Below, piece after piece: positions 438 through 57,945 of a DNA stretch of 64,000 nt. Positions within the stretch are counted from its first letter, which is position 1. Each line of letters opens with the position of its first letter. The position numbers were made by a program, and so were the translations under genes. The DNA lies in contig OZ004609.1 in assembly GCA_963924565.1 (NCBI GenBank), positions 32,984,001-33,048,000 of the forward strand, read 5' to 3'. The notes beneath the pieces are model-generated. The model saw nothing but the letters and a program-made list of their open reading frames with translations, ran no database searches and was not told the origin of the DNA. The stretch comes from Ascidiella aspersa. Its lineage: Eukaryota.

Positions 438-670
438 TTCTAGAGGTTAAAGTTAGATACAGAAAGAATATCAAACACATTTAAGGATGTCAAAGTGTTA
501 CCTACTTGGGCTAAACATTGCCTAGTCTTTAATTTATAGTAACTACCATGATAACCAATTCTTTTTAGACTTTCCCTATCACTCTGCATGATTTCTGACG
601 AGGATGCCCAACAGGTTTTGTCCAAGTCTAATTATTCCTCATATCTAAATGTGAAATTTCAAACTTGCAG

Positions 671-18600: not shown

Positions 18601-21600
18601 CGAACGGTATGACTAAATGGGTTGCAGCATTTCCCTGGTAAATTATTGTATAATATTTTTTTGTGGAGGCTAGTTTGTTAAACGTTTTAAGAATATTGAA
18701 GTGACGTAGTTTAGCCTCGTTCTAATAAAACTTTAACAAAAAAATAAATAACATGCTTATGTATTTTCGAAAGGTATAACTGTGACTAAAATATAACTTT
18801 TATGATTATAATAAAGCTTTTTAGAAGGCTGGAATTACTTAACTATAATTTATAATTGTTTTGTTTAAGCTAGTTTGCTTAAAGATAACCTTCTTTACAA
18901 CTAGTATAAAACGTATTTTTTATAATGTTATTTAAAATGGGATCTAATTCTAAATGATGTTGGAACACACGCATTCGTGAAATTGTTGATTGTTTGCTTG
19001 TAACGTTTTTGCTTGAAAAATATTCTATGTTAATAATAACCCTTCACAACTACTATAACACGTATTTTTTACAAAACTATTTAAAATAGTGTCTAAGTAA
19101 GGTTCGAACACACGCGTTTGGGAAATTGTTAATGGATTGCTTGCAGCGTTTTTCCATGTAAATTATTCTATATTAATTTTGTCCAGTATAGTTTGTAAAG
19201 CGTTTTTAAAAAATAAGGGTAGTTTGGAACACTATATACGGATCTGTTCATAAGTTTAATGGTGAAAATAACGGCCCAAATAGAGGTAGTTTGTTTTAGG
19301 AAATATCCGAAAAGGTGCCTCGTTCGAAAAAAAACTTTTTAATTTCCCTTTAAACGAAAAAACCTTTGTTTTAAATTTATTATCCTGCATATAATTAAAC
19401 ATTGACTCAATTTGGTATACTATGTATATAATGTTTAGGACAGCGGTTCTCAACCAGTGGGCCATGGCACTGGTGCAATGGCCCACTGGTGGGCCATAAT
19501 AACGTTTGAGGTGGGCCACAGACCAATTTAAAAAACCTAGATTTAGTTTCATTTGTGTCATTATATTTAAATTTACAGGAATAGTGGCTTGGGGAGGAAT
19601 TAAAAAAGAATGTAACTTTATTGTTCAGCCGCAAGTATCTCACCAATGCACGGTTGAATAAATAATCTGTTTACAAATATGTTCTGCTGTGTTTTGTTCC
19701 AAACCTTTTTTACAGTTTTTATTTTTTATTGGGCCACAGAATTTTTTTTGCAACGTAAATGGGCCACGAAAGAAAAAAGGTTAAGAACCACTGACTTGGG
19801 ACTTCCATAACAATGCATTCACGTTTTTTTTTGTACCGTGGTGATTCAAAACTTAAGTTGCTAATTTAGTCATATTTTCTCAGCTGCAAGAGTTGAGCGT
19901 TAGCGAGATGATGGAGAAAGATCTCGGTGCCTTCGCCGCCGAAATTCCGCTCAAGAAAATAAAGGAACTTAAAACGGTCAACTTGACAATGGTTAAAGAT
20001 AAAACCTGGAATCGAGGACAGGTATGACTGATATATTCGATTTTGCTACTGACAAATTAGGTATAAGGAGTGTGGCTATAAAACACAATAATCGACGTTT
20101 ACAGCTAGGAGCAATGCAAAAATGCTAAAACTAAAATCTTTTTTATCAATTTTAAAAGCATATATTTGAATCAATGGATATATTAGGGTTTGTAACGTAT
20201 AAAATTAATAAATAATTAGATGTTGTTACAACATGAAGATTTAATTATTTTAAATGTATTTTATGTTAACTTAAATAAAACAAATAATCGTTGTTTAAAC
20301 AATATTAAATTATCGACTATATTTTAATAGTTTGCTTTATGTTATGCTAGGCTGCAAGGCTTATTGAAATTGCAAATGTCACCAATGACTACGACCTCGA
20401 TGCTGTTAAAGTCAGGTAATTTAACCTTTTGTTTTGGTAATGCCATTGACAGATTATTGGATGATGCTTCAGCAATAAAGAACGAGCAATGCAAAACTAA
20501 AAGTATACCATTTTTTCGCTTATTGTCCTGAATGAAATTTTGTTGTAAAAAACAGTTTGCCGTTATTTGCAAAAAACAAAAAACGTTAGCCATTTTTAAT
20601 AAAAACAGACAGGTAAGGTTTTTTTTATAAATTTTCGATCCAATTCCTTCTAAACGAGTTTGCGGAGGGTAAATGAAGGGTTGTGTTTTTGTTGGGTTTC
20701 TATTTTATTGTTAGTGAAGTGCTAATTTCATTTTTTTGATACAAATCAATCTTCACTTCGCTTTTTAGGGAGCTTGGCACGACGGTGGTTGGTTTGAAAT
20801 GTAGGCACATCATGAACGTTCGATACGATGAAATCTTACCAGTGACCGTGGCGCTGGACGATTCAACCGAAATGTCGTTCGATATGGTAAAAATTAATAA
20901 ACTTTCAAAACATCAGTTGTTGAGGTAAATTGAAAAGGTTGATTATTCAGACACATTAGTTTTTCTTTCGACGTAATTCAAAAGTGAAATAAAAAAAGGT
21001 TGAATACAAAAGCTACTACTTTTAGATGTGGGTTTATCCAATGATTTACACAAATACCCCTATTAGCTTGACGTCTAATGAAGATGAATTTAAGTTGTAA
21101 TAAAAATAAATGTGCTGTTGCTTCCAGATATAGAAACGTCGCATAAAACAAATAAGTACCGGAAGAACTTATTTTCAGTGTAATTATGTAATAAATTGCT
21201 TCAAAATGCGGAAGAAGAAAGTAGTGCCTTATAGAAAAAGTCTAGATGTGTTTCACCGGGTTTCATCAGCAATGCCTTTACTAAAAAGTATCTGTTGACT
21301 TAAATTAGAATGTGCTGTGGAAAGAATTGTATTAGATTTGTTGTCAGATAAATTTTCACGCAGGACGAATGCATTGCGGAAAAGCTTCACTTTTCGAAGG
21401 AAGTCGAACTGGGAATCGATTACCTCAAAAACTCAAGCAACCCCGATCTTCCCGGCATGCTGGGAAGCATACCAAGTGACGTGGCGCTCTTTTTCAAGTA
21501 AGATTTATATGAGTACACAATGCACATTGCACAATTCACAATTGCACATGCAATAGTTTAGCACCAAAAAAAAAAAATATATAATCTAAAAAATCTTAGC

Positions 21601-24600
21601 TTGATTATCTTCAGTAGAAAGAGAGTGGCCCAAATAATAGATAAAAGATTCATTCTTTTATTAGCAAACGTTTCGGCAATTTCTTTTGCCATCATCAGTG
21701 CTCGGCACGAGACCGCTACCGCCTCCTTCTGTTGGAGTCGCTGCTTATACAGCAGCACAAGCCCGCTCTCAATGTTGACACGGTCTCAGTCCCCCTGTAT
21801 TTGTTTAATACTTAAATGGTATATTCGCGCAATTCCATCGTCGTGTTCATATTTCATTTTTAATTTATTACTAATTCCCTCTTACGTGTATCTGTTGCTT
21901 CCCATTGACCTCATTGTCTTATCTTTGCCCTACTTTCGCCTTACTGATGTAATTTTTCGTTGCAGTTCTTATCTCCGTTACTTTGCGACTTCCTTTTCTG
22001 TTTATATAACGTTCTAAAACGTCCGAGCGTATATATAGTGACTCGTTTTTATCTTAGCCTCACTTACTGCACTGATGATGGCAAAAGAAATTGCCGAAAC
22101 GTTTGCTAATAAAAGAATGAATCTTTTATCTATTATTTGGGCCACTCTCTTTCTACTGAAGATAATCAACAGATCCGTGTTTAGTGTTTCTTAGCTTGAA
22201 ATGTTGTATTTTGGGAATGACACACATAAATTTAAATTCAAAATATGTTTTTTTTCCTTTTTTTTCTTTTACCGGTGGGTAGAACTTACTGGCGCCAAAT
22301 GCCGAATAAACTGGTCCCACGACCCACACGTATGCCAATTATACACAAATAGCAGTGATGAATTATAAAAATCCCTAAGACTAAAGTATCATAAACCTTT
22401 CGACCTATTGTTGTGAACTAGTGGTTCTCAACCTGGGGCATCCAAAACCCAGACGTTAACAAGAAGCTTTCGGGGTATCTTGGATTGCAGTGCAGTACAC
22501 GCGTGTTGCTAATGTTTCAATATCATAACTGCAGGAGAAAGACTTGGCAATTAGGTTTCACAGTTTCTATTTACTTAGAGTTACCACTTTCTACAGCAAG
22601 GAAGGCCAACCAGTCAGAGACCCAGAGCTACATTTCTTACTAAGTTAACCACAATGAGCTAAATGGATTTACATTGAAGTAGTTGCCAAAACACGAGTCG
22701 CATAAAAACTGGTTGAAGAGCCACGGTTTGGCCACCAATGTAGTGTTAAATTCCGTGGGATTCTGGTTAATTTTATATTTTGAAACTCAATGGTGCCACA
22801 AATATAGTTTTAGAACCTCTATTTTTTGTATTTTTACGTTATCCAGGCCTCAGCTGCTTAACTTTACTTCATCGCACGCTTGCGGTAGGCTGGTGGAGAA
22901 AATCGGTCAAGCCAATCTCGATTACTTGCCCGACATTGGTGGCGTATCAAGGAGGAAAGAGTTGGCTCTGGTCTCTGTCGAGTGCCTGGTATGCCTGAAA
23001 CTGACGGCTTTACAGACCTATTAACTATAGTTGTTAGTTTTTTACCAAGTAAGTTATGTTTTGACGACCAAGTGAAATATGTACGCCTTTCTGGTGAGAT
23101 TCCCTTTTGGCTTAACTTTAGTGTCTGTATAATTTTTATCGTTTACACGTCACACCTGACTTACACTTTCTAAACTTGAAATCTCGTGTTTTAAACAATA
23201 CTGAAACTCGATCTACAGCACCGACTCTTTTTCTTTTATGGATCATTTTCAAATTATTATACGCTACAGCAAATCACACGCTTGTTCTTTCAGATGCGCT
23301 CGGAAAACCGCACAGGCGGTGACGGTTTGTCTGAGGAGGAAGTCTTTAAGTTGGGCGACATGTTGTGCGACATTCCGCCCGATCAAATCGCTAAAATACA
23401 GGACAACGCAACCGAAAGTGCCTTGGAAAAACTAAAGTCCTGCATTCCAAGGTTTGGAAAGTAGCAAGCCGAACGCCGCTTGATTGACGAAGTAACACAA
23501 AATCTATTTTGTAAATTGTTATTGTTATATTGATTGAGAGAATCTACACTACGAAACTTAAATAATAATTTTATATGTATGACTTGGACTGCTCTACTAC
23601 TGTAGACTAACTGGACATTTTAAAACGGAGCTTGTTTTCTTGGCACCTTTTTAAAAGCAATGTTCTGGTTGTCAATACAATTTTAATACACAACAATTAT
23701 AACCGAACTATTTGTATTTGCTCTAAGCCAGGGGTGTCCAATTCAACCATGCCGGCGTGCCAATTTTTATCTTATAACTTCTTCCCAAGTTTCGTAACCG
23801 AACCAATTCTTTTTAATCATAAAAGCGCTTTTTTACCAAAAATAAGAACGTTTATTTAAACTTGAAAAAAAAAATTGTCTAGTAGAAATGCGCATCACTA
23901 CATGAAAGTGTCTCTCGGTGAGCTTTTGTTTGTTCACACCATGCTATATAATATTATGTGAATGCTAGCCTCCACTACTATATCAAAAATAATTGTTGGT
24001 TGTCGTGATTGCCGCGATTGTTTTATATTGTGAACAAACAATGGCAATTGGCTGTATAACAAACTTAGTATTTTCTGACAATTGGCTGAATAACAAATTA
24101 AGCTTTTTTGACAATTGGCTGAATAACAATTTTAGTATTTTTTGGGAGGGCTTGCGTGCCATTTTTTTATTAGGTCGTGCCGCTTGTTGGACACCCCTGC
24201 TCTAAGCTATTTTCAATATGCTAATATCCAAAGTCAAACCGATAAAGTAGTTATCAGCATTAATTTGCCAAGATGTTTCAGCGCTAACCTTCCTCATAAA
24301 CTCAGTTGTTTTGTACGACGAAAGAAAAGTTCCCGGCAATGTCATTAAGCACATACCGATTTATATTGTTGTTATATTGTAATATTGTTTCGCTTAAATC
24401 GAAATCTTTGCAGATTCTCACGCGAGTATGTGAAGCCGGTGGTGGACATGGTTCACAAGCAGCTTGGATCAGATGCTTCCGCTTGGACTGTGGAGGCTCT
24501 CGCTAAAGTTGGACCCATCGTCGCACTTCTCGTTGATGATGAAATCGCAAAGATCGACAATGTAAGTTCTACATTAGGTATTGTTTGTCTTCTTTTACAA

Positions 24601-27600
24601 TTAGAATATTTTTATTACGATCAATGCCAGTTGCTAATCCTGTGTGATATATAATTTTCTTTATTGCAAAATAAGAATCAGCAAGTGTTCAAATTATGCT
24701 TATCCCATTCATCCGTTGAAGACAAAGGAGTTGCGCTGTATACTGTATAGTTGACCGATCAGTTCTAAAAAAGAATATACAAAAAAAACATACAGGAAAG
24801 GTAGATTTGGGAATAAAGTACACAAAAGGCCTTTAGATTTTTTCTAATAATAGTCTATTCTTCGTTTTAAAAGATTTTAATTTCCTGCTTAAATGTAACA
24901 AAAATAAATCTTTGTTTTCTATTACTGGCTTTACGCTTAGTGGTATGCCTACTTTTGCTTTCATCAGATCTAACCATTTTATCGACTGCAACAACATTTG
25001 CTACGCATTTAAATAAACTCGCACTGAACTAGTAAGCCGTTAAAAAGTTTTTTTGCGTGTTAAATAACCTTGTTCGTTTTAACCGCCAAATGATAGCTTT
25101 TGCAGTAATCTTCAATGTAGCGCACCACTTTACTCATTTGAATAAATGACTTAGTTCAAGTGAAGTTATTTTTCAAGTTGACTTAAGTCAAGTCACTTTG
25201 CCCGAAAAACTTCAAGTCAAATCCATTGAAAACAGTGTCTTAGTAATTACAATACCACTGCTTTGTTTTCCAGGAGACTTTCTTGGAGGCTTTTGACAGC
25301 ATTGTGCCACCCGATGATATCATGGAGATGGTAATCGTTAACTCTAAAGCGTTTTACCGAAAAGCGTCCGAGGTGCTTACTCCTGCTCCTACTGTGAAGA
25401 ATAGCATAACAAAGAGACAAATAGGTTCGACAAGCCGGCAGGCCAGATTAAATTTCAAACACCAATATAACAAACATTACCTTAAAACTATAGTATAATG
25501 CTAAATAATGAATTAAATCTTTTCTACAAAAAAACATTTTGTTACAGTCTGCTGCTTAGCACCACATGTCTTCAGAATAATTTTATTAAAAAAAAATTGT
25601 TAAAACAACCTACTTTTCATTGAATACACGGCCATTGTACCGGGCCTGAGTTGCATATCTATAGCCAAAAAGTCTTTCAGGTGAAGAAAATTGTAAACAT
25701 TAGAAAATAAATGGATTCTAGTCTACAATGTGCTCAAAATCCTATGTTCCACTGTACAAACAATCATCCACATAAACGCACACAAGTCAAAGAAGAGCCT
25801 TGCTATTGGGACAAAAAAAATTGACTGATCTTTTTTCTATATAAAGAACAAATAAAATGCCATTAAGGGGAAGTAAACTTAACAGTTTTCTGCAGCAAAT
25901 TCGCTAAGAACTGTGTCCTCGCTTACTTTTAGTTGAAACCGGGCCTGACTTCGACCAGATAACGGCTCTTGGAGATGGCAACGTGAACTGGACGCCCGGG
26001 CAACTGAGCTCCATTTCCGACGAGGACTTCGCCAACTCACTTCCCGCACTAGGAGCGATCGAGAACTGGAGCGGCGAAGCAACTGTAGCGCTCTACGATC
26101 ACATGATTCAGGTGAAAGAGCGTTCATATTTATCGTACATATTATCTAGGAACCTTTGTTTGGTGTTTCTTTATACGTTTAAAGTTTGAAGCATCGCATG
26201 TGTTTTTTGGATTACTTTTAAACTGCATTATTTTATTCCACTGTATTGTTCGTTTTTACTTACTTAAAGTTACGCTTTCAGCCAGGAATATAATGATGCA
26301 GTTTTATTTTTTCACGTTTCACCATTAAGCCATGTTTTTTTATTGTAAAAACACTTGTACCTGTTGTGATTCACCGGAACGTATAGTAATTTTTGCGAAA
26401 ATAATGTAACTGGGTTTAGCAGTCTAACCGAACATGTTTTGGACACCGATAGGCAACTTTGGGTTAAGCTTTGTGCTCGAATTCCATTTTGTAACCTAAT
26501 ATTAGAAGCGCCCCTCAAAACTACCCTGTGTCGCTCTTTGTAGATATAAATTGTACAATCTGATTTCAGGTTTAGTTTAACTTTATTTTTATTTTCAGAC
26601 GTTTAACGAGCCGGAGACTTGGGAAGTTGAGGTGATATCTGAAGCCAAGCACATTCTCGCCAACATGTCGGTCGACGGCATTCTCACGTTAGACCTCACC
26701 GACCCGGATGCTGTTGCCTCCTTGTCCGAAATCAAATGGAACCACCAACAGGTTATCGATTGCAATCTGAATATGTAAAATATAAAGATTGAAGATATCT
26801 CCTCGTCCTTGTACGTTAATGACGACAATGACTTCGGACAACCAGCTGTGTTGGCAAAGCGAAAAGAAAATAGGAAAAAGTGTGTTGCCAACACAGCTGG
26901 TTGTTTTTTTCAAGACTTGGGCAGCGGAATGGTCCAGTTTCCTAAAGGCCTACCTTTAATTTTAATATTTTTAACTTACTCACGTCGTACGTCGCTTTGC
27001 TCTCTATTGTTATTTTTGTATTAGGCAATGCAAACACGTATATTTCTCTAATAATGACTAGAACTTATATATGACTGATTTTGACTTAGTCAAGAACGTC
27101 TAAAGTATATTGCTGATTAACGATCTGTCAGTTTTAAACAACACCTGCCTTTGCATATGCCGCCCCTTCGCACATTTTTTCAAAGCGGAGACTGGATTAA
27201 GGTTGATTGCACATTTACTGTAAAATAGCTTTTTGCTTTCTACCAAGCTTTCGGGACATTTAATGCTTCCTTGATCATTTGTAGTGTTGCGAAATTAAAA
27301 CGTCCAAACGCCTTTTTGCCAGTTACTTAATCGAATATTTTCTTTAGCATTAGTAGATTTAGTTACCGCTAACTGTTAACCTACTATTATATTTGGACTA
27401 ACTTACCTTCAAAGTAGCAATAGCAGCGTTGGTTCGTAAACCATGCCTAAAATTTCTATGTTAATTTGATATCGGATCGCCACCGGTACCACCCTAGTAT
27501 AAACTTTTCCCAATTTAGGACAGTAACTCATGCCGGAAAGCATTCGAGTCTTACATACGCTCTATCTATTGGAAATCTGGTAATATTAATACCTTTACCT

Positions 27601-30600
27601 ATTGCCTTGCGTGTTTTAACTTGTCTATGCCATGTAGAATGAATATTATTATTAGGTTGCTTCTCAGTCACATTAACTGAAGGTGATATAGGCTCGTATC
27701 GAAACGTCTTAATCAAGATGCTGTCGATTTACTCGACCTTTTTGGCTTTGCAATTTATTATCAAGCTACATTACAGATTCGTGCATAGTATACCCAAGTA
27801 TAAATTTTTTTTTGTCAAAAGTGTGTAGCAAATATTTTTTTACTGTGTCGTAAGCTAAAAAAGTTATCACTGCAATAAAGAAATAAAAACAAACATTTTT
27901 TTTTAATTTCAATATTTTCAGAGAGCAGCTGCATTGGCGGGCTACATTAACCAAAACTCGAAAAGGATGTCGTCACTGACGAGTGATGACATCACCGCTC
28001 TTGGTGACATCATGTGCGGGTCTTCTCCCATCGAGCTGATATCCCTTCGTCACGACGTAATGAGGTAGCGGTGGATATAATTGAAGATAACTATTTCCAA
28101 TATAACATTTTAAGATAAAATAAAATTTTGTTTGGTATGACGTCGATTAATATACATCGGTAAATCTTTTATATCAAACAACTTTGATTTAACGTTCATT
28201 TTTTGAATGTACAAAAAGTGCTCATTATTTGGCCGTTTTGATGGAATGTTGGTAATAACCAGCCGTATTAAATAGATTTAAAGTTTAAATCTGTGAAAGT
28301 GTAATAAAAAAAAATGACGCATAGGCTTACACTTATCCCAGAAATTAGCAAGGAGACTTTCCAACTTTCGTCAGAAACAACCACTTTACTGCTTTTGTGT
28401 ATCTTTCTATAGCGAGTCGATGTCGGAGTTGGGTTACTCGGAGTGCTTCGAGCAACCGCAGAGTGACGTTCTTTTCTCAATTATCTTGATGCTGAGTGAT
28501 GAGGAAATGCCAGACGCTCCATTACTACAAGAGATGGGATCGCTAGCAGGTATAGTCAAGTGTTTAGGATCCTTACCGATTACTAGAGTGTGATAAGGTC
28601 GCGTTTATTATATTGACTCTCATCTAACTTGATCTTGTCGAAAAACTGTTAAAATCAAAGGTGAACTGTAAACGTCATACAAACGATCTAAGAGCAGACT
28701 TATTGTTTATTAAAATATGTCACCGAAAAATAAATTACGATAATAACGAATAAAACAACAATCCTCAAACTTAAAAACAAATAAAGTCGGTAAATTTATA
28801 GGATATTTGATAGAAATGTGCTTCGACAATAATAAAATTATTTGTTAACCGGTGTAAAAAAATTCAGGAGATTTTGTACAAAATTCTTATTAGCAATTCG
28901 ATTTTTTAATACTTGTTTAATTGACAGCTGGTCTGGCCGTGGAAGAACTGCGGGACATTTCCCTGGAAACGATGCCTTTTCTGAAAGAAGTCTTCTTTAG
29001 AAACATCGACCCAATTCGTATCAGGGTATTTATTGACGGACCAAAAAATCTCTATTGCGGATGATTTACCTAATCAAGTTATTTTATATATGCGCTTATC
29101 TGTTAATTATTTCAGCACATTTTACCAACGGCAGGGTAACTGATAATTATACAGGTAACAGTACAGAAACAATCTGGTATGCGTTTTCGTTTTTTTAACG
29201 CGAAATGTACGTTTGTTAATAAATATGTAACGCATTTGTAACCTATCTAGGTATTAGAACAACAAATTGGAAGTTTAGCACACAAGCACAATGCGCATAA
29301 AAAACTGAGACACTGTTGAAAATGCTGATATTGTTGACATATGCTGTGGATTTGGCGTATTATCATAAAATCAACCTTACTTTTGTCCTATAAACCCTAC
29401 TTGTTGTCCTTAGGACGGCTTATCCCCCGACCAGCTGGCAACCTCTGGTATCACAAACGTGGCGACCGTTATGAACAAACCAGACCTCTTCGATGTGCTT
29501 GGAAAAAGTCAGCGGAACGCTCTCCAAATGGCGGCATACGGAAGAATTTTAAGTACCTCACAGTGAATTGATAATATCTCACCCTAATAATTAGCTGTTC
29601 AGTGTTCACGAGAAGGCACTTTCGTTTTAACTTCGATCTTTTTATTCAGTTTACCTTTGCTTAGAACTATATAGAAGTTATTTATGTGTCCACAAACTCC
29701 ACAAAGCTTTTAGGTCTACGTTTAACACTGTATTCCCTTCTATAGTTTAATTAAGTGGCGACTAGTTGGTTTTCATTTCGAAAGATGGTTTGAAACCAAG
29801 CCCTTAATTTCTAACCTAATACAAGTGTTCTTAAGCTGGGGTTCGTAGACTCATTAGGTGTATACGTGGAATGGTTTCACCTGATTGTATTATTTAAAAA
29901 TGGAATGATTTGTTTAAAAGAAAATTGATTAATATATTTTGTCAAGAGGGTATTTAGGTTCTATTTCCGTTTTATATTTGGGCGTGATTTTGACCGAAAA
30001 TAGCAGGTTTTAAGTCTTGTTTTATGTCAAGTTATGATGTAATTTCTGAAGAAATTCATGCCACACGAACCAATTTTTTTGTGGGTGATCCGCGTTTGCG
30101 TATTAATCCAGTATTGTTACACGATTGTGCGTGCTGCCTCATAATTCTCCACAAGTGGCACTGAATTAGTTTTTCCCTTTGAATAAAGTGCCCTCCAAAG
30201 TTGAAAGCACCACTGCAGCCTACAACCCCAACAGCAACAACACGAACTTCACCGGTGCCATCGATGTTCAACTTGACAGTAAGTTATTCGGGATTCTCGC
30301 TTCCCGTGAACGCTAATTGTGGCCGCAGCTAGTACCGGATTCAGGGTACTGTAGGCCTAAGGCTGTTAACTTAAATAAGGGCCTAATTTTGCAAACCAAG
30401 CAACAAAAAGTAATAGAAATACGCACATTTTGACTCTACTCATTCATTGTGAAGCAAAAACTGTACTGTAGTTGTACTGCATCTATATCACTATCAGGTA
30501 TCAGGCTTATAAAAATTTAACCTTTAAAAAAATTGGGGGCCGACTTTTTCCAGGGCCTAAGGGTATAGTCTTAGTAGCCTAATGGTTAATCCGGCACTGG

Positions 30601-30808
30601 CCGCAATTACCCAACTGTCGAAATTTAAAGTAAAATAACTAGCATGCTGTGATTGTTTCCAGATTCCGGCGCCGCGGGTACTATTGATTCAATGGAGACG
30701 CCTACTAATGCAACCATTGGATCGCCTGGCAATTCGCCGTATGTAGTCGGAACTGCAAGATACGCCGCTACATTTTTCTGCTTTCTTGTGTCGTTATTTA
30801 TATATTAA
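671..30808 (+). CDS. Gene A: multi-exon (~47 exons in window) otoancorin/mesothelin/stereocilin-like GPI-anchored protein with two tandem modules; 5' end probably upstream of the window; roughly 2100+ aa in window
   Basis: Hand splicing gives a continuous phase-compatible frame, e.g. 1269-1343, 1844-2038, 2188-2229, 2428-2583, 3679-3816, 4089-4156, 4398-4521, 4685-4800, 5145-5289 ... 11571-11804 ... 30663-30808 (exon 671-710 is tentative). It contains repeated short helical LG-x-x-x-x-GL/C motifs (LGKVAIGLSC, LGDMLCDIPPDQI, ITALGDIMCG, QEMGSLAAGL) typical of this family. The last exon ends ...GSPGNSPYVVGTARYAATFFCFLVSLFIY*, a GPI-signal-like tail. Confidence 0.75.
3112..3435. mobile_element. 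hAT MITE
   Basis: TIR caggagtgcttaaactt / aagtttaagaacccctg; perfect 8-bp TSD ctgtaagc (3104-3111, 3436-3443). Confidence 0.85.
8930..9234. mobile_element. hAT MITE
   Basis: TIR cagtggccagcaaa / tttgctgaccccga; TSD tgctagac / ttctagac. Confidence 0.65.
12972..13137. mobile_element. Penelope-like pLTR fragment forming a hairpin, with a degenerate hammerhead core
   Basis: Inverted arms ttaatggtgaaaataacggccca...ttgttcaaac / gtttgaacaa...tgggccgttattttaccattaa enclose CTGATGA (13062-13068) ... GAAA (13086-13089). Confidence 0.6.
18880..19175. repeat. Diverged tandem duplication of a ~150-bp intronic unit
   Basis: ataaccttctttacaactagtataa...gaacacacgcattcgtgaaattgtt recurs as ataacccttcacaactactataa...gaacacacgcgtttgggaaattgtt. 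Confidence 0.65.
19230..19285 (-). repeat. Short end fragment of the same pLTR-like family
   Basis: cactatatacggatctgttcataagtttaatggtgaaaataacggcccaaatagag, nearly identical to 12972-13026 and 40093-40136. Confidence 0.75.
19441..19793. mobile_element. hAT MITE
   Basis: TIR cagcggttctcaacc / ggttaagaaccactg; degraded TSD gtttagga / acttggga. Confidence 0.7.
21601..22186. mobile_element. Penelope-like pLTR insertion with 101-bp perfect inverted repeats, each carrying a minimal hammerhead ribozyme core
   Basis: 21601-21701 is the exact reverse complement of 22069-22169. The arm reads gca-CTGATGA-t-ggcaa-aagaaa-ttgcc-GAAA-cgtt-tgc, then AATAAA, and the right end is aacagatccgtgtttagtg. Confidence 0.75.
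22069..22106 (+). ncRNA. Putative minimal type I hammerhead ribozyme (mirror copy on - strand at 21664-21701)
   Basis: Intact CUGAUGA and GAAA boxes, 5-bp stem II ggcaa/uugcc, palindromic mini stem III (AAACGUUU), GUU triplet, short stem I gca/ugc. Confidence 0.6.
23729..24199. mobile_element. hAT MITE
   Basis: Perfect TIR caggggtgtccaa / ttggacacccctg; perfect TSD ctctaagc (23721-23728, 24200-24207). Confidence 0.9.
30330..30599. mobile_element. hAT-type MITE
   Basis: TIR tagtaccggatt / aatccggcactg; TSD gccgcagc / gccgcaat. Confidence 0.65.
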
Positions 30809-31930
30809 ATATTATTTTTTGTACTTTTATGTGTTCCAATTAAATATCATTTAATTTTTTCTACAGCGCTGTACTCGACTGTCGAAAAAGCAGTTTTTTT
30901 CAATGATGAACATTAGCTAGGAGATTCCAGATGCTTTGTGACTTTCTAAATTTCGAGCAAAAATAAGCTCTTCTAATTTTTTTCCGGTAGCAAAACAGTT
31001 TTTTTTTTTAGAGACTAGCGTCTTTATGGCGAGAGTTGGATACAAAGTTACGATTTTAATTTGCTTTTTGAAAGGATCAAATTTATCTAAAAAGTTTAGC
31101 TGCGCAACCTAAACGCTTAATAATTCTGGTAGTCTTTTGTTTAAGGAGAAATAAACAAAAATTATACCCCCTTGTTCGATATTTAGGTCTACATGGATTG
31201 GTTTCGTCCATCGGTCAGGTTCTCCATTAAGTTTGCCACTATGCGTGGAAAACGCGATTCGTTTGAGAGGGATTTTTTACCTTGATCAATCCAGTTATTT
31301 AGGGAAAATTTTGAAAAGGCTGTTGTAATAAAATTGAAGCAAACTATGCCCTTGCTTTCGTAAAAGATTGTTGTTGCCTCTACAGGTGATTATCCAATGT
31401 ATCGAAACTTCAGGTAAAGGAAGACTGTTTATCTGCAATGGCATTACATTAAAATATTTAGGGCAATGTTCGTTTTGATTGTTAAAACCTAAAAGATAGT
31501 TTAAATAAACCTATATTTTATCGTACACAGAAAATAAACCCTACTGCTCAGGATAAAATGAAGAAAGTTCGGGATTTGTCGCTTGCTTGATGAGTGACCT
31601 TGCAAGGTCGCTTATAAAAAACAGAATTGTAGGTATTTGGTTTAATTCTATTTCTTACGTTTAACATTGAAACTGATTTTACTGCTTACTTTCATTGTCC
31701 AGGCAAGTAAAAGTTTTAAGTAATTCGCGCGTTAATATGTAGGTCTTTGTTTCGGGTTGCATTATTAGAGATATTTTCCAAATCAGTGTATCAAGTTTGT
31801 TAAAATGATTTGTTTTTCTTTGTTAAATTATTCAGATGAAATGTTATTAAGATTGGGCCTGCGTTGAAAACGTATAGTTTTTTATTTATTCCTAATCTTG
31901 CTGATTAAGTGAAAATTGTGATTATTGGCA

Positions 31931-34900
31931 ATGACAATATCCGGTTTGTCAAGCTACTTGATCGTTCTAGGTAAGCATAATATGGTATTAATTGAAGTTA
32001 TTTTTTTGAGTTGAATCTTTTTTACAATTATTAGTTAAATTTATTTTATTATCAGGGTTTCTACTGGGATGGATGACGGTAACTTCTGCAGGTTAGTGCC
32101 AACTACGAATTCCAATATAGAATTATATCCGAGATAGACAACGCAGATTAGGTTTACTAAAATGTTGGTTTAGTATTTTTTACTACATATTGTTCTAATT
32201 AAATCATCGTTTTACAAATCACGTAAACCTTTACATTATGTTATTGTCGGGTAATAATAATTTACGGGATGATGAATGGTCGGAACACTCACTAATTTAA
32301 GTGTTACCCCATTAAAACAATTATTAAACCAACCCACAATATTTGAGTTAGGGTGGGGGTTTGGGTGAAGGTGGGTCAAGTGTTATTATATTTAATAATA
32401 ATACTGTGAGCGTTCTGACCATTCATCATTCCGTAAATTAGTGTTTCCCGTTTTTGTACACATTAAAATGAGACCATCTCAGAATATATTTTGTGTATAA
32501 AAGTTATCCTTTTTTTAGGTAATTTGCCTTTTGTAGATTCATTTTTTTTTAATTGAAGACAGTTTACGCTAAACCGTTCGTTGTTTTCTTTTTTAAAGTA
32601 ATTTACCTTTTTTTTGTAATTACTATTTTTTTTTTCTTTCAGCTTTAAGCAATTTAGGTGGATTACAAAAATTCAGAGATGGCATGCCAGAAAACTTGAA
32701 CTACAAGGAATCATATGTTAAGCAAAAAAGTAAACTCTGTCTCTTGCTTTATATTTTGTAGGCATTTGTACACACACACACATATTTATACACAGTATAA
32801 TATATTCAAATTATTTATATGGAAAATGCAAATATACAGCTGCATATTACTCTTTCCACTCTATAAGTATCTAACTTACTTTTCATAATTACTGTGTAAC
32901 TGTTTTGTCACAGAGACTGTTGTTAACATGTAATAAAATACTGCAAGAATTTTCTATTTGTTTTTGATCTGGAGTGTTAACTAGTAGTATATTAAAAAAT
33001 GAATTCTTGCACTGTCACATACCAAATAAAAGCCCTGCAACATTAAAAATGTGACCACTTATAAAATAGTTCTTGATAAATAAAAAAGTTTTGTTTTCAC
33101 CAAAATGTGTAAGAATTTAATAAGGTGCTCTGAAGGTTTTTATTTTTAATAAAAATTATTTAAAAATTATTTAAAAAATATACAAAGTCTTATGTATAGT
33201 CGCATCATAAAATATTTAGTCACAGCAGATATTACAGTCTTAAGTTTTAAAATTTGTCTTTTTTTCAGATCCCAGGATAAAGCGCAATTTAAAAGACATC
33301 AACATTAAAATTTTCCGTAAGTATATTTGCAAAAAGGACTATTTTTGCAAGAAGTCTGGTTAACCAAATATAATTAAAGGCTACTATTTTATCTTTAAAT
33401 AAAAGCTGAATGCACGTCTCTCCAGTTCTCATTTATTTCAAATAAATTAGGTAAATCCACTTTCGTTTTAATAGTTTATATCACACCTCAAGTCATTACG
33501 TTTTTCAGCTTGAACTTTACTTTGTCTTGAAAAACAATTAAATTATATACCTGTTGTGGCCACCTTACAATCACCTGTCCATCAATAAACAACCATAAGG
33601 GCATTGTACTGCTCACCAAATAAGGAGTGTAAAACAATGCATAGGCTACTAAAAAAAGCTGTGTTTGTAACTAACAAACTGTAATCCAATTCCGCAGCCA
33701 AATTTGCACCATGGCTTGTTTATGAGCTTTACAGCACAATTAAACAAGACAGACCACTGTATGTTGCATTAAGTATAAAATGACAGCATATATGTAATAT
33801 AGAATTTTAATTTGATTGTTTGTTATGACTTGAAGAATAAATGCTTTGCTTGTATATATATAGTTTTCTATTGCAGTAGTTTTAGATTTGAAACTACCAC
33901 AATATCAATAACAATATTACCTAACTAAACTATAAAATACTTTTATAGCAAGAAATTTCATTGATAGAGGTTCAGCAGTCACAAAATTGTAAGTTGGCTA
34001 TAGAATATTAATACCCTTTATGAATGGATTCAACCATATTTCAAGCTTAAACTTTTAAAAGTATTTATAACTCTTTGGGGAATCACATAAATGTGCACAT
34101 AATGAACAAAACATTTAAATAACAATTTGGAAGCTTGGTTTACTGCATTGTTCAACCTAATCTAATTATACAATATATACATGCTTTTTTTAATAGATTA
34201 GTCCACATTCAATAATAGGTTGTTAAACTCTAACATGACTCACTAGTTACTACTTTATCAGTATAGCAACACATGAAAGTGAAGTTTTGGTCGATGTTTT
34301 AGAAGGATCTGCCTCTATCAACGATCTAAATAAAAACACCCTCAAAGAGATTCCCCCACAATTTATGGCCAAAGTTAAGGTTAGCCATATTGATTTATTT
34401 TCACAGGTCTTGAAAAGTTGGCTGAATGCCTTTAGTTGCGAATATAGTAACGGTTAGTAGAATAAAACAATGAAATGTTCAAGTATATGTTTTTTACTAT
34501 TATTTTAATTACTCTTTTTTTATTTTCAAAACAAATTAGGTTATGTATTCTGTCTTGTTTTTGTAGAAATGGGATAAATTAATACAAGAGGTATCAGTAA
34601 AAACACTCTACACGAATCTTCAATTTGTAAAACATCTGTGTTAAAAATACATTTTGAGTATATACCTCTTAACTTATGGTGACACCCGACATTTTTAAAA
34701 ACGAAATTGAAAAAAAATTAAATCGTTTATCTATATTTATTTTTTACGAATTGGATAACTGCAAATATATACAAGATAACCCGCGAATCACATGTAATTG
34801 ACAAACATATTACTTATTTATTTAGAATGATGTAATAAAAGAAATCAGTAGCGATTCGCTGGCTGAGATGTTGGACTCTGATGTGATTGCACAAGATGTG

Positions 34901-37900
34901 CCAAGCTTGAAAAAAATGCTTAAAAGGTTTGATGACACGCAGTTGGAAGAATCGATGGCTAAGATTTCAGAAAAGACGGTAAGTAGAATGAAACCTAAGA
35001 TCATTGTCTGTAAAAATTATTTAAATACGACATGCGTTCTTGTTTCGAAAATCCTATACCAATAAGTTATGCCTATTTAAAAAAGTCATTTTGCAACCCT
35101 GCAATATTTTATCCTAACCATACGTTTTAATTTTACATTTAAATGTAAAAAATCACCTGTGACTGTGAGTAAATGTACAGTTATTTATATTCAATTAAAA
35201 ATGATAGTTACCACATACCAATTAAGATTTTAAGGAAGTATTTTTGACCAATCAGCGTGGAGAAAGTGGAACGATGCTAAATCCGGCCATTGCAGTTCAA
35301 GAGTCTATTGCGGAAGAGTTTATGCGTCGAAATATTAAACGGGGATCTAACAAGAAGGACCAAGTCGCTGTCCTCGACAAGTTTGTCACCGTCATGTGTC
35401 CCTTCGTTTCTGGTTTGTCACCTGGAGATATCAATAAACTTCCTGTGGACTCGGACAAAACTGCGGAAATGTTAGATGTTGAATGTTTTAACATATTTAA
35501 AAAGTCATACACTGCAGCAGATAAATTCGCGTGACGCATAGGCTATTACGGCAATGTAAATAATATTCAGAACACTTTTTTAAAGCATTATCTGATTTAA
35601 TCTAAAATACAATGTTTTACATTATTGGATAGCGTGTCACTCTTACTAATGCTATTCACGATAAAGTAATTCTGTGTATCTATGTTAAAACTGTAAAATG
35701 AACATATGAAAATAACACTATTTAAACGAGTTATTTCCTAAAATAGTATATTAAAAATGTCATACATTAAGCAACGTTTAAAATTAAGCAACGTTTTAAA
35801 ACCTAAAGCGGAAATATCATAAATCGTGAATATATTTTCCAAATGTAGAATGGAATGCTTTGCCGAGAACTACAAAGATCTGGACAAGGCTCAAAGAACC
35901 CAGTTTGCCAAATACTTAATGAAAGTCGACAGAGGCAATAAAGAGGCGATAAAGCCGTCTAACTACGGGCCATTTATGCTGGATGTCTCAAGCAAACTTC
36001 TCTCACGCAAAATGTCGGCCTCCGAGGTGAAAACCGAGCAGATGTATTATACCTTTTATAACTGAATAAGGTAACATTTTTTATCTAAGCTTTTCTTTTC
36101 CATGCAAAAACATGGCAGTTAAAACGAGCTTCTGCCTGAAACATTTTAGCTAGTGGCATGATTAATTTAAAAGCGATTACCGATCGTAAACGGGTTGCTT
36201 AGCGTTTTTGCCAATCAAAAACATAATAATGTAAGATTCCCAAAAACTTGTCATTAATTTAATAAACAACAAAATTGAAAATATTGTTATTTTGTATGCA
36301 ATTCATGAATTTTCAGTTTGCGTTATAAAGTTATTGAAACTTTTTAATGCAATTACTTTGCTCAATAAAATAAGAAACTTATCTTTAAGGTGTTATTAAT
36401 CAACTTTTATGACTGCAAACAATCAATTATTTTGCAGCTGAATGAGATGTTACAAGGCGACTTCGCCGATTTGGACCCGACCAGTCCTAATTTCAAAACA
36501 TTTGCCAGATCTGTCATGTCTGCGATTGTTCAACACAACATTTCTTATTTGTACGAAGAAGCAAATTTAGTAAAGTGAGTAAAAGTACAAAGGAAAGTGA
36601 AATAGACTTATATCTTCGTCTCTATCTGAATATGTTTTCAATTGAAGAAACTAGCAATACTGTAGTCCTGAAAAAACGGGTTGACTAAAACTGCACGAAA
36701 ATAACATAAGGGCAAAAAAATATCAAATTGACATTTAGTACTACAGTAAGACAGTTTGTCTTCATGGTGAATTGTTTTTCTTATTATGTATTTTTTTTGC
36801 TTTTTCTTATTATCTACTGCTTTGAACGTTTTTTGTTATAATAATGTTGAAGCATCGTATAAGCGCCTAGGCCTTACCACCGCTGTTTTTTGGCTCTATA
36901 GTATTGTTGTATAAAAAAGAAGCTTAGTCGCGTGACGATTTACAAACCTACGATAACCGAATCAAGTCGTATACATGCTCGTAATTTAGTTTAAATGTTT
37001 AGTTGAATTGACAAAAAAATAGGATAGTCAGGTTAAATTCACTAAGATTGTCGTTGTAAAATCTCCCACTTTGTAAAAAGAAAATTACTTCTGATGAGAC
37101 AGGTGAGAAAGTTTTACTCTGAATAATGCGTATATCTCAACTTTTTTGTCAGGTTGGACATTGTTTTGTGCGAGTACAGCTTTGATCAGCTGAGAAAGCG
37201 GATAGACGCTGCACAAGATGTGCTGGTGGCAAAGGCCTACCTTAAAATGTGCGGAATGGGGGATACGAGTTCTGAAATACAAGAGGTTGAGTGTTATTTG
37301 TTTACATTAATTTACACAGGATAGTTCCTATATATATGAAATCCAGTCCCCAGGCAAAATTTACATTAACAAGTGTTGACAAAACCTGCAAGTTATTAGA
37401 AACATCAACTTTAGTCAATAACTCCAAAGCAAGCTAGTCGGTGATTTGAACCCACGCCCGTGGGAACCCGCGTCCACTAGTTTTCTGACTAAGTTATCAA
37501 AAAAAGTAGAGCTGTAACTGATGGTTCTCTGGACTTGGCAGCCCGTGAAACAACTACATTCGCTATCTAGTAAAGTGGTGGTTCTTAACCTTTAGTGGCG
37601 TACCACCTAGTTCAGGGTTTATTAACGATAGGGATGCTCGCACCCCCAGGAGTGCGTGAAGTGTTTCAAAAACTCACATTTTTATAATGTGTTACTGTGT
37701 TATCAGTTACTTGTATAAAAATAAAATCACAATGGTTTTGGTATTGGAGATTAATTGGTGGATTCAAAAGGAGTGCGACAATTGTTTGGTGATTTGAAAG
37801 GGGTGCAGCAAGGAAAATGTTCCACAGACCTAGTTGATTTTACTATCGCTGTGTACCAACTGGTTGATAAAGAAACCATCTTGCTCAGATTTACTTGTGT

Positions 37901-40900
37901 TTAACAAAGCCAAAAATTGAATTAAAAACATAGCTCCCAGCGCTATCTAAAAACTTTAGATTACATCCCGATTTAATTATGTTAAACACGAGTGACACGT
38001 CTACCACACGTTAACAACCATTGCATCAAGGCACTTCTGTGTTTGTTCCATGTCATAGAACAGTGGTTCTTAAGCCTTGTAAACCCCACACGCCTTCCCA
38101 AGGGGAGCGCGCCCCCAGTTTAAGAACCATTGTCATTGAACGTCAACTGCTTGTGATTTGTCCAGTGCACTCCCGCTGAGAAGAAACGCTTAAAGAGGTG
38201 CCAGGAAGCAAAGAAGCGACCATCCACCACCAAACCAAAGAGGAAAAAACCTACAGTGAACGTTTCGCAGTTTAAGGTGGACGGTTCTTGTGTTAAAATA
38301 AATACACAAATATCGTAATATACATATTGTACAATACCTTCATTACAAATATGTTGTGTTTCAATTTAAGTATAATGTGTTTCGGTCAAGTTATAAAAGC
38401 AATTATCACCCCGAACCACAAACGAAAAAATGAGGTCCGGTAAAAGTAAATTTTAAGATTTTTTAACCTTAACCTCTTTTCAACCGTTCCGCCTTCCTGC
38501 TGCCAATAGTCGAACAACTTAATCCTAATACTTCAAGAAAACAGTTACATGATATTTCGGGTACAGCGAATGTACACTAAATGGTCTCCATCAAATGGGT
38601 TAACATAAAATAAGTCTGACCGCGGTTATTTTTCTAAAATGTTAAAAAATCTTCCAAAATTTAAATAAGTTAGAAATCGGAGTGATTTAGCATTAACATT
38701 AACAACATGCTGTTTTTCCCGATGTTAACCTCGCGATATTATATTTTTACAGGAAACTATTTACGCGTGAAACCAAAATTAAACGTCGCGAATTACACTA
38801 ATGCCATTTCACGCAGATGATGCGGACTGCAGCCAAGACGCTCCTCAAAGACAAGAACCTGACGCAGCTGACAACCGCCGATGTTGAGGATGTGGCGTCT
38901 GCACTTGGAGGCCTTAAACCGAGGGAAATCAAAGAAATACCCGATTCAGCTATTCTCAGCGCCATGTCCACCATAAAAACCAACAAAAATCTAAGCAGGA
39001 AGCAGGTAAATATAGATTCTGTACCTTACTGTTTTTTTCGCAACTTTTCTTCGATATTTGAGGTATATTTTATTTCGATATCCACAGACAGCCTAAACCA
39101 GTGGTTCTTAACCTTACATGCCTCGTGGCCCCCTTCGAAAGGCTTTTAATCCTCGTGCCCCCCCTCGATTTAAAAATAAACTTAAAAGTTGTGTTTAACG
39201 TGTTTTCACTTGTTTTATTCTAACACGTTAATAAAAACACACTTCGATTTGAATGAAAGCCGATAAAAAAATACACTTAAAATCCAAAATTAAGTAACGT
39301 CTGGTCGAATCGCATTATTTTGGCAGAAATAACATTGGTATCGTCATTCTTTCTTCGGGGATGCTTTTTTAGTTTTGAGGGTGGTAATGACACATTTGAC
39401 ATCACAACCGAGCAGTGCAGACACTTCGCACAATTATGGCTGTTTTGTCTAACTTTTGTGAAGCCAAAAGTGACGTAACTCTCGCAGTTTTCGACATTTG
39501 ATAAAAACCTTGTTTAAGCTTCGTGTAAAAACGTATTTTGAATAGTAAACTTCTTTGAAAGTATTTTCTAATCAACTATCCTTCGCTCTGTAAAGCTTGC
39601 TTTGACTACTTAACCCAATTAATTTTACCACAACATTTAATCAATGGAACAACAACAATCATTTTGTGAAAAAAAATGTTCAACTGCTTGTATTAGTTTT
39701 ACTCTTATTCCAACTTGCGGTTTACAAACCCATAAAATGCTGGTTAAACGTTGCAAAGACAAACTGAGTAAACAGGAAAAACACAAATGTTGGATGTATG
39801 TGACGTAACAATGATTGGCAACTAGGCGAGCAGATAAAAAATTGCAAGCTTGACGTCGAGTGTTGCAAAACTTTTTACGAATAGCCAATAGTAACGTGTA
39901 AGAAAAAATCCGTTACAATAGTTCAAAGAAGATTTAACACTACAAGTTTGAGTTTAACTAAATAAATTCAAAATAGTGACACGGGTCGCAATACCAAGAC
40001 ATTGCAGACTTATGCTCGTGGCCCCCCGATGACAGCTCCGTGCCCCCGATGACAGCTCCGTGGGGGCCGAGGGCTACGGTTGACTTTGGAATCACTATAT
40101 ACGGATCTGTTCAAAAGTTTAATGGTGAAAATAACGCAGGTCGCTTACACCTCGGTTCTGCGCACCTTTTTATCTATCGTTTTTTGCGACGCTTGTTTCG
40201 CACCTTTTTATCATTCCTTTGTGCGACTAAAGTGTATATAAACAGGTGTAACTGATGTGGCCTTTATTTCACTGATACGTGGAATTGGACAAAATTATCA
40301 ACAGAACCTTTTTATTAAGGCACCGTGTTTATCTTAATTTACCGTCATTGAAAATAACCTGTCCAACATAGCCTTTCAAACATAATATCATTTGATAAAG
40401 AATTTGAGTCGGAGTTTGGCCTACCCAAATATAGGCAACCAATCTAAATGCTTAGCAATTCTGCAAGGGACATTACTCTGAACAAAAAATATTTTTCTCT
40501 TTATAGAAACGGTTGATGCTAAAAAAGGCGCGCTCTGCTGGCTTGGAGATCACGAACCAAACAAAACTGGCCGATATTGGCGAACTGGTGACTGCTGTGG
40601 GCGCCAAAGAATTAAGACAAATCCCAGCGAAAGAAATACTGAGCAACATCAAAGTAATGACTGACCACGCGGACTCTTTCTCTGGACCCCAACGAAAATC
40701 TATTATCCGAAAGGTAAGGACCCTTTCACAAGTTGAACGATTGTATTAAAATTATTTTGCGTAGCTTGTTGTGGCTTGTTTTTATATTTTGGTTTGGTTT
40801 CAAACTATTTTTATGATAAGGGCTGTCATGAAACACTTTTATGAATAAAAAAACATATTTCTTTCGATATGGACATTGTTGGTTACGCCTATACAACAAC

Positions 40901-43900: not shown

Positions 43901-46900
43901 AGTTTATTGTATTGTTTTTCTAAGCGGTTTATTCGTTTAAAATGCCGCATTTTGACTTGCTGATTTTCCTGTCGTCATCGTTTTGTACTTTTTTAAATAG
44001 GCAATATGCATTCTTTCCAAACTACAGTGAATCTTTTATGTAGTCGTTAAGCAAGCTTAAGTAGATAGACCGATATATCAGTTTACCGGTTATTTTGGCC
44101 GATATTTTACTATGAAGATATCATATACAATATATAGCTTTTCCGCATAAACAAACTTATTTTCTAGATTTTGAACTTACAAATATTTCCTTTTGTTTCT
44201 TTTTCATAAGGGTTGTATAATTAAACAGGTAGACAAAATAAATGTTTTCGCATTTGATTTTCAAATAATTTAAATTATTACCATATCCCAGGTATATAAA
44301 AACTTGGTATACAGTATCGGTAACGGGAATCGGTTGACAAAAAACATGAAAAAATCGGTGTTTGGTATCAGTCCAAAAAAGTGATATCGGTCGGTCTCTA
44401 CTTGTTAGAGGAAAAAACTGTTTGTTATTGCAAAATAGTTCCCTTTCCGAACATTTCTCTTCGTGTTTAGACTTGAGATGATTGACGATACGTCACCTGA
44501 AGTATGCTCGAGGTTGGTTGAACAAATCGGCCGGGCTGACCTCGACTCTCTGCCAACTGTTGGGAATGTATCGAGGGGAAAGCAATTCGCCGAATCCTCT
44601 GTCATCTGCCTGGTATACAATTATACTTCTTTCATTTTTTTCAAATGGGCGTCGACTAAATTGTTTTGATTGGGTTTTCATTCAAAACATTGTCCACTAA
44701 TCTAAACCTAAGTTGTTCAGCATTAGCCTTATTACAAAATTTGTGCACTTTTTTGTTTTGTTCTTTCATGGAACCTTAACCTTTTATGCGTTGTGGTTTA
44801 AAGACAGATGCAAATCTGTTTACCTTGCTGTTAGAATTTTTAAAGCGTTACTTCAGTGTTACACGATATTTTAAGCCTGGGTGTAAACGTTTTTAAACTC
44901 CCTAAAAATGGCCTGTAGTTGAGAGTTATTAGTTTCACTAAAGTACATTCTGGTGAGCGAATGCTGTGTATTACAAATGCTCTGGTGTGTAGTAGAATTT
45001 ATATTCGACTTTCAGATTTCAGTCTACGATATAATATATAGCTGTAGTTAGTTAATTCAAAGCGTGTTCTTTTGCAAAACATGCATCAAATAATTTCTAA
45101 ATTTACATTGTCGCTTTTATTCATTCAAATTATCACACCCATGAGCAAACCACACGCTTGTTTCCTTCAGATGCGCTCGGAAAACCGCACAGGCGGTGAC
45201 GGCTTGTCTGAGGAGGAAGTCTTCAAGTTGGGCGACATGTTGTGCTACATTCCGCCCGATCAAATTACAAAAATACAGGACAACGCAACCGAAAGTGCCT
45301 TGGAAAAACTAAAGTCCTGCATTCCAAGGTTTGGAAAGTAGCAAACCGAATTCCCTGCATATTTAACGAAACAGTTACCATATGAGCTTCTTTCGTGGCA
45401 CGGTACTGTTTATTTTCTCTTAGGATATTTAAAATCAGAATTCACGTTTAATTATAATGTTTATTGGGTCCCATAAAATGATTTCGGGTAACAATGTTTT
45501 TTATGCGGTGTTATTATTTAAAATGATACTTTTTGAATTTTAAACTTAATTTTTTGTTGTTCTGTTTTATCTACTTTCCTGCAAGCGTTTTGTAACGGTA
45601 TTAGGAGAACTCTTTGTAAAAACACTCAAATTCACAACGTACCAAGTCTTCAATTTCAGACATTTGCTATTTTTAGAAGAGTTTTCACTATTAAAACAAA
45701 CTTTTTTAATTTATTAAAAAAAAAGGCGAATTAGTAAAATTCAACGCCTCGATTTGCGTTTTGATACCTTGTAATTTTCACAGAAATCTGGGGTAAATTA
45801 ACATTTCCTATCGCAAATACGGTTCAAAACCAACTTTTTTTCTTTTTTTTTAAATAGTTGTTATTCGACGGTGGAAAGTCGCAAGGTAACTGTTCAACTT
45901 ACTCCTCTTTGTGTACACCCACTTAGTACTGGTTAACGACACCGTATCCATATTAATAAAGTGATCGACTGTTTATCTTTTGTATTGTCATCCAAGCAAT
46001 GCCATCAAGCATGCAGCAAACATGTTTTAAATTTGACCAAATCTGTGCAGATTTTCACGCGACCAGGTGTTGCCGGTGGTGGAGATGGTTTACAAGCAGC
46101 TTGGAGCTGACATTTCAACTTGGACCGTGGAAGGACTGGCACAAGTCGGACCCGTCATCGCATTGCTGGAAAAAAGCGAAATCGAAAAGATTGACGGTGT
46201 AGGTTTCTGTTTTCGTTGTTGTGTCATTCGCTGTCGATATTGCAACGGTTTTCTTTGGTTTTGAGTTCGTCAGGTGCATCGTTAATATCGAAATTTAAGT
46301 TTATATAAGTTGTGACAGCATTTTGTCACATTTCCTTCACAACATGATATTTAAGCAATAGTATGTCTATTTAGACGCAGAATAAGATGTTTAAAATGGA
46401 TTAAGAATTAAGATGTCTTGAAAATGTGCTACCAATACCTCTGTATGGGCTTTATTTCCGTCTAACTAAAACATCCAGCCATTATGCTCCCAATTGTGTA
46501 TTTATACTAAGGCTCAAGACGGGTCTTTTTACTGAAGCACACTGCCGAAGGTGTATTTGACCTACCTCGGTTTTGGAAAAATCTAAAGTGTAGTACAATG
46601 TTTACCTTTAGAATTACTTTTTTATGCTCTAAAATGTTTGTTAATTTTCTGGTATAGATATGACCTAACAAATCGCTACTTTTGGCCGTATTTTTAGTTT
46701 TGCGCTATACGCTGCATCAATATAAATGCGATGTTCGCTCTTGCGCCTAGTTATATTTACAAGTTTATTCCAAAACCGATACAAGATATTTTGGACGAAA
46801 AGTTTTGCGATCCGATACATAATGAGGTCATTACCATGCTTATAAAAGCAAAATCGATGAAATGAAAAACTTTAAAAAAGTTGAGCTACTTCCAAATATT

Positions 46901-57817: not shown

Positions 57818-57945
57818 TACATAACTACGTGTATTTTAGTTCAAGTCTTAAACATCTTAATATTACACCGGACTGTAATACAACAATACAGTCGATAAAC
57901 AACTACAAAGGAGTTCACCTTTAAAAGAAAGCTCAGGAAAGTTGT

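Follow-up and report, generated by a model that had tools for sequence, protein, structure and literature searches.

A probable two-module otoancorin-like gene beside a one-module paralogue in the ascidian Ascidiella aspersa

Little has been written on the invertebrate history of otoancorin, stereocilin, and mesothelin, which are tethers of medical interest. Excerpts of two reports describe how furin cuts the mesothelin precursor internally, so that the N-terminal part is soluble and the C-terminal part GPI-anchored (PMC2628672, PMC10035497). For the ascidian Botryllus schlosseri, an excerpt of one report describes an otoancorin homolog as testis-expressed and 54-fold up in fertile animals (PMC4523013). 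Family members with several modules are already known from automated annotation in sharks and fish. A search of the open-access literature found no paper on duplication or fusion in the otoancorin/mesothelin family.

The window analysed here is a stretch of 64,000 nucleotides of Ascidiella aspersa (contig OZ004609.1 of assembly GCA_963924565.1, positions 32,984,001 to 33,048,000), and all coordinates are counted from its first nucleotide. Self-BLAST shows that its plus strand carries two intron-rich paralogous genes, A and B. Both were modelled by hand from splice signals and phase continuity, and each ends independently, with a separate stop codon, a GPI-like tail, and a hexamer resembling a polyadenylation signal. 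Our best reading, with a probability of roughly 0.55, is that B is a processed gene of the ancestral type and that A is a fusion of two modules, A1 and A2, encoding an anchored tether whose junction is cut poorly, if at all. Downstream of the two genes, minus-strand open reading frames at 54558-55473 resemble a reverse transcriptase and a GIY-YIG endonuclease, as of a putative Penelope-type retroelement. A TMEM267-like gene lies at 57925-58987 (+), and its nearest named match, one of three matches, is from Clavelina lepadiformis (52% identity). One A intron contains a perfect 101-bp inverted repeat (21601-21701 and 22069-22169), probably a small DNA transposon, and several other introns contain high-copy repeats.

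Gene B spans 31931-53211 (+) and has 30 exons encoding 1265 aa without internal stop in the hand model. Its features are as follows.

31931-31970 (+): B exon 1, the ATG and first half of the predicted signal peptide, with a phase-1 GT donor
32056-32091 (+): B exon 2, completing the predicted 25-aa signal peptide
32643-32729 (+): B exon 3, most of a 35-aa N-terminal segment without homolog in A
33269-33316 (+): B exon 4, the first A-homologous exon, with RIKR (canonical R-X-K-R) at 33274-33285
33949-33988 (+): B exon 5, 40 nt from phase 1 to phase 2, corresponding to A 12119-12158; absent from the preliminary description
34262-34379 (+): B exon 6, equivalent to A 12406-12526
48286-48300 (+): RRKRR of B (B908-912), an internal mesothelin-type furin motif at a family-conserved position
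53078-53211 (+): last exon of B, with a GPI-signal-like hydrophobic tail

Exons 1-6 are all bounded by AG/GT, with phases 1, 1, 1, 1, 2, and 0. Exons 1 and 2 encode a hydrophobic start of 25 aa, predicted to be a signal peptide by hydropathy only (best nine-residue value 2.88). The 35-aa segment comprises residues 26-60, between this start and the end of RIKR. Small upstream exons encoding a predicted signal peptide and a segment of about 35 aa, as given in the preliminary description, were thus recovered. Exon 4 encodes NPRIKRNLKDINIKIF, the N of which comes from a split codon. As a measure of shape only, the hydropathy of the GPI-like tail is 2.58 in B and 2.93 in A, and 20 family tails have a minimum of 2.27 and a median of 2.85. 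Judged by sequence, B is one otoancorin-like module running from signal-like start to GPI-like tail, the standard layout of the family.

The family assignment comes from profile searches. A three-exon profile retrieved 115 proteins at E<=0.001 among 1.84 billion representatives. Most of the 30 looked up are named otoancorin-like, and they come from Nematostella, Lingula, amphioxus, lamprey, sharks, and fishes; all 16 homologs scanned contain PF06060 and/or PF21058. A family HMM built from 24 homologs, with no sequences of the window, finds one module in B (E=1.4e-147) and the module twice in A (4.6e-141 for A2; 1.4e-24 and 1.5e-34 for A1). Proteins with a single module, about 1100-1250 aa long, are present in Nematostella, amphioxus, a hemichordate, lamprey, sharks, and fishes. 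Smaller queries gave little. Pfam scans of 26 single exons produced no match above the curated cut-off and weak hints in two (E=0.096 and 0.054). Word-based searches of proteins of up to 2000 aa, which are weak evidence, found nothing among 52 candidates for A2 exon 18400-18606 and 23 candidates for A1 exon 7962-8144. When 13 B exons were aligned to one homolog, the quality was insufficient for use. By homology of their helical-repeat bodies, A and B are assigned to the otoancorin/mesothelin/stereocilin superfamily. A 67-aa fragment (P0056) is 48% identical to A1 exon 7962-8144 without matching B in the same search, and could represent an A1 ortholog of a different species.

Gene A is open over 2127 aa in 46 exons (1844-30808), and its 5' end lies beyond the window. 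Two GC donors are assumed in the first part of the model.

569-11175 (+): module A1, a diverged module copy, with a firm model from 1844
569-711, 881-911, and 1269-1343 (+): putative A1 exons upstream of the firm model
11401-11534 (+): candidate alternative last exon of A1, open, phase 1, with 44 codons, a stop, and ATTAAA
11571-11804 (+): A junction exon, 234 nt, phase 1 to 1, with KIKR at 11762-11773
11759-30808 (+): module A2, 70.7% identical to B and with the same exon structure
25406-25417 (+): ITKR of A2, degenerate counterpart of RRKRR in B
30663-30808 (+): GPI-like last exon of A2, its own tail

The putative exon 569-711 is weakly similar to B exon 11, so A1 probably extends upstream as a full module. 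The least certain part of the model is a pair of A1 exons, 6223-6349 and 5533-5716, that replaces one B exon; the insertion adds HRRHSR, a minimal RxxR. The last conserved exon of A1 (11037-11175) is equivalent to B exon 28 and ends in phase 1. The junction exon opens with about 62 codons without homolog in B and closes with the counterpart of B exon 4, an exon likewise starting in phase 1. This linker has no signal-like stretch (hydropathy 1.52), and before KIKR at the module boundary it is Pro-rich and looks unstructured. In the model, A1 passes in phase 1 straight into the junction exon, and A therefore has neither the two A1 tail exons nor the three A2 leader exons.

We located the point at which the homology between A and B begins. 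B56-1223 aligns with A905-2081 at 70.7% identity over 1177 columns (E=0), and the out-phase is identical in all 26 internal exon pairs compared between A2 and B. The preliminary description had matched 33269-33316 of B to 11756-11804 of A with the same downstream intron phase, and both points are confirmed: the A stretch has the sequence PPKIKRSIMNIDIKII, and its phase-1 donor matches that of B at 33316. To the left of the shared Pro, no anchored alignment scores above 0, a value that 300 of 300 shuffles equal or exceed; the homology therefore starts there. A possible YV match left of the junction was rejected, as it gave no positive anchored score. The start coincides with the acceptor of B exon 4, five residues before the putative scissile bond. 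Of the earlier claim that B begins exactly at the cleavage site of A, what stands is that the homology starts beside the motif; the start is five residues off the bond, and the 'cleavage site' is a motif match. The shared start point is mostly an exon boundary that carries the motif along, which limits the surprise in the coincidence. In 27 frame comparisons across three junction intervals, no remnants of the first 56 aa of B or of the tail exons were found. One comparison exceeded all 100 shuffles, the A tail scoring 29 with 10760-11036; this is the wrong intron for a remnant, and the match was set aside as chance. At the nucleotide level the alignment score was 28, and shuffles averaged 27.8.

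Divergence at fourfold sites varies strongly among the exons shared by A2 and B (chi-square 74 on 25 df; 0 of 20000 simulations). It is 0/10, 5/30, 1/18, and 1/25 for 15798-15934, 17782-17970, 23294-23451, and 25933-26111 of A2 compared with 36438-36574, 38817-39005, 45171-45328, and 48576-48754 of B, respectively, and reaches 9/11 elsewhere. These low-divergence exons also show raised identity in the downstream intron flanks. The pattern suggests gene conversion between A2 and B.

A1 resembles B more distantly. B446-743 matches A16-318 (E=4e-12) and B927-1194 matches A575-838 (E=3e-13); the local score is 263, compared with 60 +/- 8 (maximum 99) in 100 shuffles. Of the 19 introns of A1, 13 have a B intron of equal phase no more than 1 aa away, and the A1 exon model was made before its homology to B was seen. 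Two trees were computed as quick searches without bootstrap, the first from 61 of 66 rows (five poorly aligned rows dropped) and the second from 26 rows under a mixture model. In these trees A1 groups with (A2,B) (SH-aLRT 95 and 96), sister to vertebrate sequences. The end branches of A2 and B are equal, and the placement of A1 is unsure owing to its long branch (1.78 vs 0.15). By these comparisons A1 is an ancient copy of a B-type module, apparently joined in frame to A2 through a phase-1 exon.

The two genes differ in their basic motifs, of which there are two kinds. The first is the putative pro-segment site, RIKR in B. No canonical R-X-K/R-R lies between the modules of A, where the sequence is KIKR (A906-909). 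Motifs of the form [RK]x[RK]R number five in A and six in B, so KIKR is singled out by position alone. According to excerpts of two papers, furin prefers R-X-K/R-R and Lys at P4 is not recognised (PMC12405487, PMC2702071). Within the first 100 aa, a basic motif is present in 3/29 full-length homologs with a hydrophobic start, which by rough estimate is near chance.

The second kind is the internal motif. R-X-K/R-R stands at one internal position in 41/63 homolog rows, and Xenopus msln.L has RARR there. Homologs carrying it range from Nematostella and amphioxus to fishes and Xenopus, and it is absent in one vertebrate clade (P0021, P0027, P0068, and relatives). We read this position as the putative mesothelin site parting MPF from the anchored part, aligned via Xenopus msln.L. 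Such a distribution points to a mesothelin furin site as ancient as the cnidarians. B carries the motif intact as RRKRR, A2 has ITKR, and A1 has no basic motif at this position. Hence, a cut at KIKR would still leave mature A2 unlike mature B. Aside from these two positions, canonical RLKR occurs in both A2 (16972-17085; A1253) and B (38166-38276; B403), followed by Cys and a lysine-rich linker, and may be a processing site. A1 carries RxxR at A413. Thus, A is not free of furin motifs.

The motif states bear on a polyprotein reading of A. KIKR would be cut by a non-furin convertase or a surface protease, giving a soluble A1 and an anchored A2 with an N-terminus matching that of mature B. In its favour, both genes retain a basic motif where the module begins, in A after a Pro-rich linker, and Nematostella has KDKR at a similar N-terminal place, outside the filter of the 29 homologs. 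Excerpts of the protease literature also give (R/K)XnR as the pattern of convertases in general (PMC12405487) and mention type II membrane proteases that accept K at P4 (PMC2702071). These points are set against the preference of furin, the rarity of the N-terminal motif in the family, and the loss of the internal site from A2, by which the products would be unmatched even if cut. We regard this reading as possible but unlikely. The same evidence does not uphold the preliminary description in taking KIKR as the processing site of A, nor in predicting matching mature forms. Its long and short forms survive as two genes, one long and one short, with B better read as ancestral-type than as a short form of A.

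A bolder proposal treats A as a two-module otoancorin polyprotein in which an ancient paralog and a stand-alone copy were fused and the pro-segment site was reused for module release. The locus would then yield A1 in soluble form, A2 anchored and uncut, and B processed twice, and the arrangement would have arisen independently of the multi-module mesothelins of sharks and fish. We put it forward tentatively, as a rather unlikely outcome.

In the preferred reading, with B ancestral-type and A a fusion, an ancient tandem duplication would have given A1 and a B-like gene, and a later duplication A2 and B. A1 would then have been joined to A2 by splicing via compatible phase-1 introns, with loss of the A1 tail exons and the A2 signal exons; read-through fusion of adjacent genes is reportedly a known route. 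KIKR would be the inherited pro-segment site, since drifted. B would give rise to a shed N-terminal part and an anchored part of about 330 aa, as mesothelin does. A would form a GPI-anchored tether of double length (about 2500 aa, estimated) with weak or no cutting at the junction, which we infer from the K at P4 in KIKR, the ITKR in A2, and the lack of an internal site in A1. The order of events is inferred by parsimony: the outgroups show the one-module layout to be ancestral, which does not order the A2-B duplication relative to the fusion. Profile and word-based protein searches found no tunicate ortholog able to order the events. Between the two origins offered earlier, a partial duplication with a new 5' end or a fusion, the fusion is the better one, as B keeps the one-module layout of the outgroups.

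The reverse order, in which A1-A2 preceded B and B is a later partial duplicate of A2 that acquired a new promoter and three new 5' exons, fits the lack of any trace of B-like signal exons upstream of A2. It is also compatible with the equal A2 and B end branches, and outgroups cannot order these two events. However, it needs a new promoter, a signal peptide, and three in-phase exons, and B retains the ancestral internal site and the one-module outgroup layout and is the more highly expressed gene in the RNA run X3. We hold this order to be improbable.

RNA data bear on whether A1 and A2 form one unit. We used run X3 (about 6% of it read) and contig sets X1 and X2 over 11000-30999, with depth taken at listed variant sites. 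In X3, reads of a single strand give a depth of 20-30 on the last A1 exon, 40 at 11638 in the junction exon, and 34 at 12442, and depth ranges from 6 to 31 on later A-specific exons. It is 4 at 11294-11312 and 4 at 11478-11482, with 3-5 in the flanking introns. The low depth after the last A1 exon indicates that splicing carries most reads out of that exon, with the junction exon as the fitting partner. The depth pattern is indirect evidence for a join of A1 and A2 in one transcript. The X1 and X2 contigs cover the junction as overlapping pieces, no single one spanning it, which argues against an assembly error. Among 21 exonic variants listed, 15 are synonymous and 18 fall at third codon positions, supporting the frames of the models.

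If A1 and A2 were instead separate units, A1 would end in 11401-11534 and A2 would be a 5'-truncated copy with its own start. An open phase-1 exon with a stop and ATTAAA does follow the last conserved A1 exon, and the splice from 11175 to 11571 is absent among the 15 joints listed, beside 251 further joints. But depth on 11401-11534 is at the intron level of 4 with 20-40 on both flanking exons, neither read starts nor read ends are listed as clustering in it, its tail hydropathy of 1.8 falls below the minimum of 2.27 in 20 family tails, and the linker offers A2 no signal-like stretch. Separate units are accordingly very improbable. The exon 11401-11534 was rejected as the main last exon of A1 and may be a minor or vestigial one.

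B reads cross-mapped on A at 90% likeness, and their overhangs match the modelled B junctions when compared by eye. Junctions 10|11, 12|13, 13|14, 19|20, 22|23, and 23|24 have 139, 204, 220, 182, 210, and 258 reads, respectively, and B-type reads are about 5-10 times as deep as those of A in X3, which is one sample. B is spliced as modelled at six internal junctions and more deeply than A, so it is not mainly a read-through of A but is expressed independently. That A and B are one gene through read-through splicing, a concern raised in the preliminary description, is scarcely credible: the last introns of A and the first of B are all phase 1 and could be spliced in frame, but B-type reads are several times deeper and each gene has a separate stop, tail, and hexamer.

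The locus offers a natural comparison, as a one-module gene with both processing motifs lies beside a probable two-module fusion in which the motifs have drifted. If confirmed, it would represent module multiplication outside vertebrates and make it testable whether duplication alters tether length or shedding. The closest described proteins are the otoancorin-like proteins (OTOA family; PF21058 Stereocilin and PF06060 Mesothelin), such as Branchiostoma XP_078605556.1, Ptychodera XP_070581149.1, and Lampetra XP_078451123.1. They have a signal peptide, for which B has a predicted counterpart, and share with B a length of about 1100-1250 aa and a GPI-like tail. B is 21-25% identical to them (best E=1e-52), the amphioxus protein aligns over B97-1170, and the internal basic site is shared. 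Unlike them, B has a 35-aa segment ending in RIKR, a motif with counterparts in only those 3/29 homologs, and A has two modules; none of these matches groups with A1, A2, or B in the trees. The otoancorin of Botryllus schlosseri is likewise an ascidian homolog, set beside A and B by description only. For the mesothelin precursor (MSLN; MPF plus mature mesothelin), RRKRR of B aligns with the RARR of Xenopus msln.L. Human MSLN has 622 aa and is cut inside one module, not between modules, and A1 and A2 are without that site. Multi-module mesothelin-like proteins are predicted in Rhincodon (XP_048465576.1, 4700 aa), Stegostoma (XP_059510198.1, 7881 aa), and Hoplias (XP_066510539.1, 3098 aa), with four modules (the first partial), five near-complete modules, and two modules, respectively. 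The internal site is absent in 5/9 module rows of multi-module proteins. Like A, they have whole modules in tandem in one chain with one GPI-like tail. They are proteins predicted by automated annotation, belong to the vertebrate mesothelin branch, and have repeats that are young and alike. In contrast, A apparently joins a very old paralog to a young one, beside a free-standing copy.
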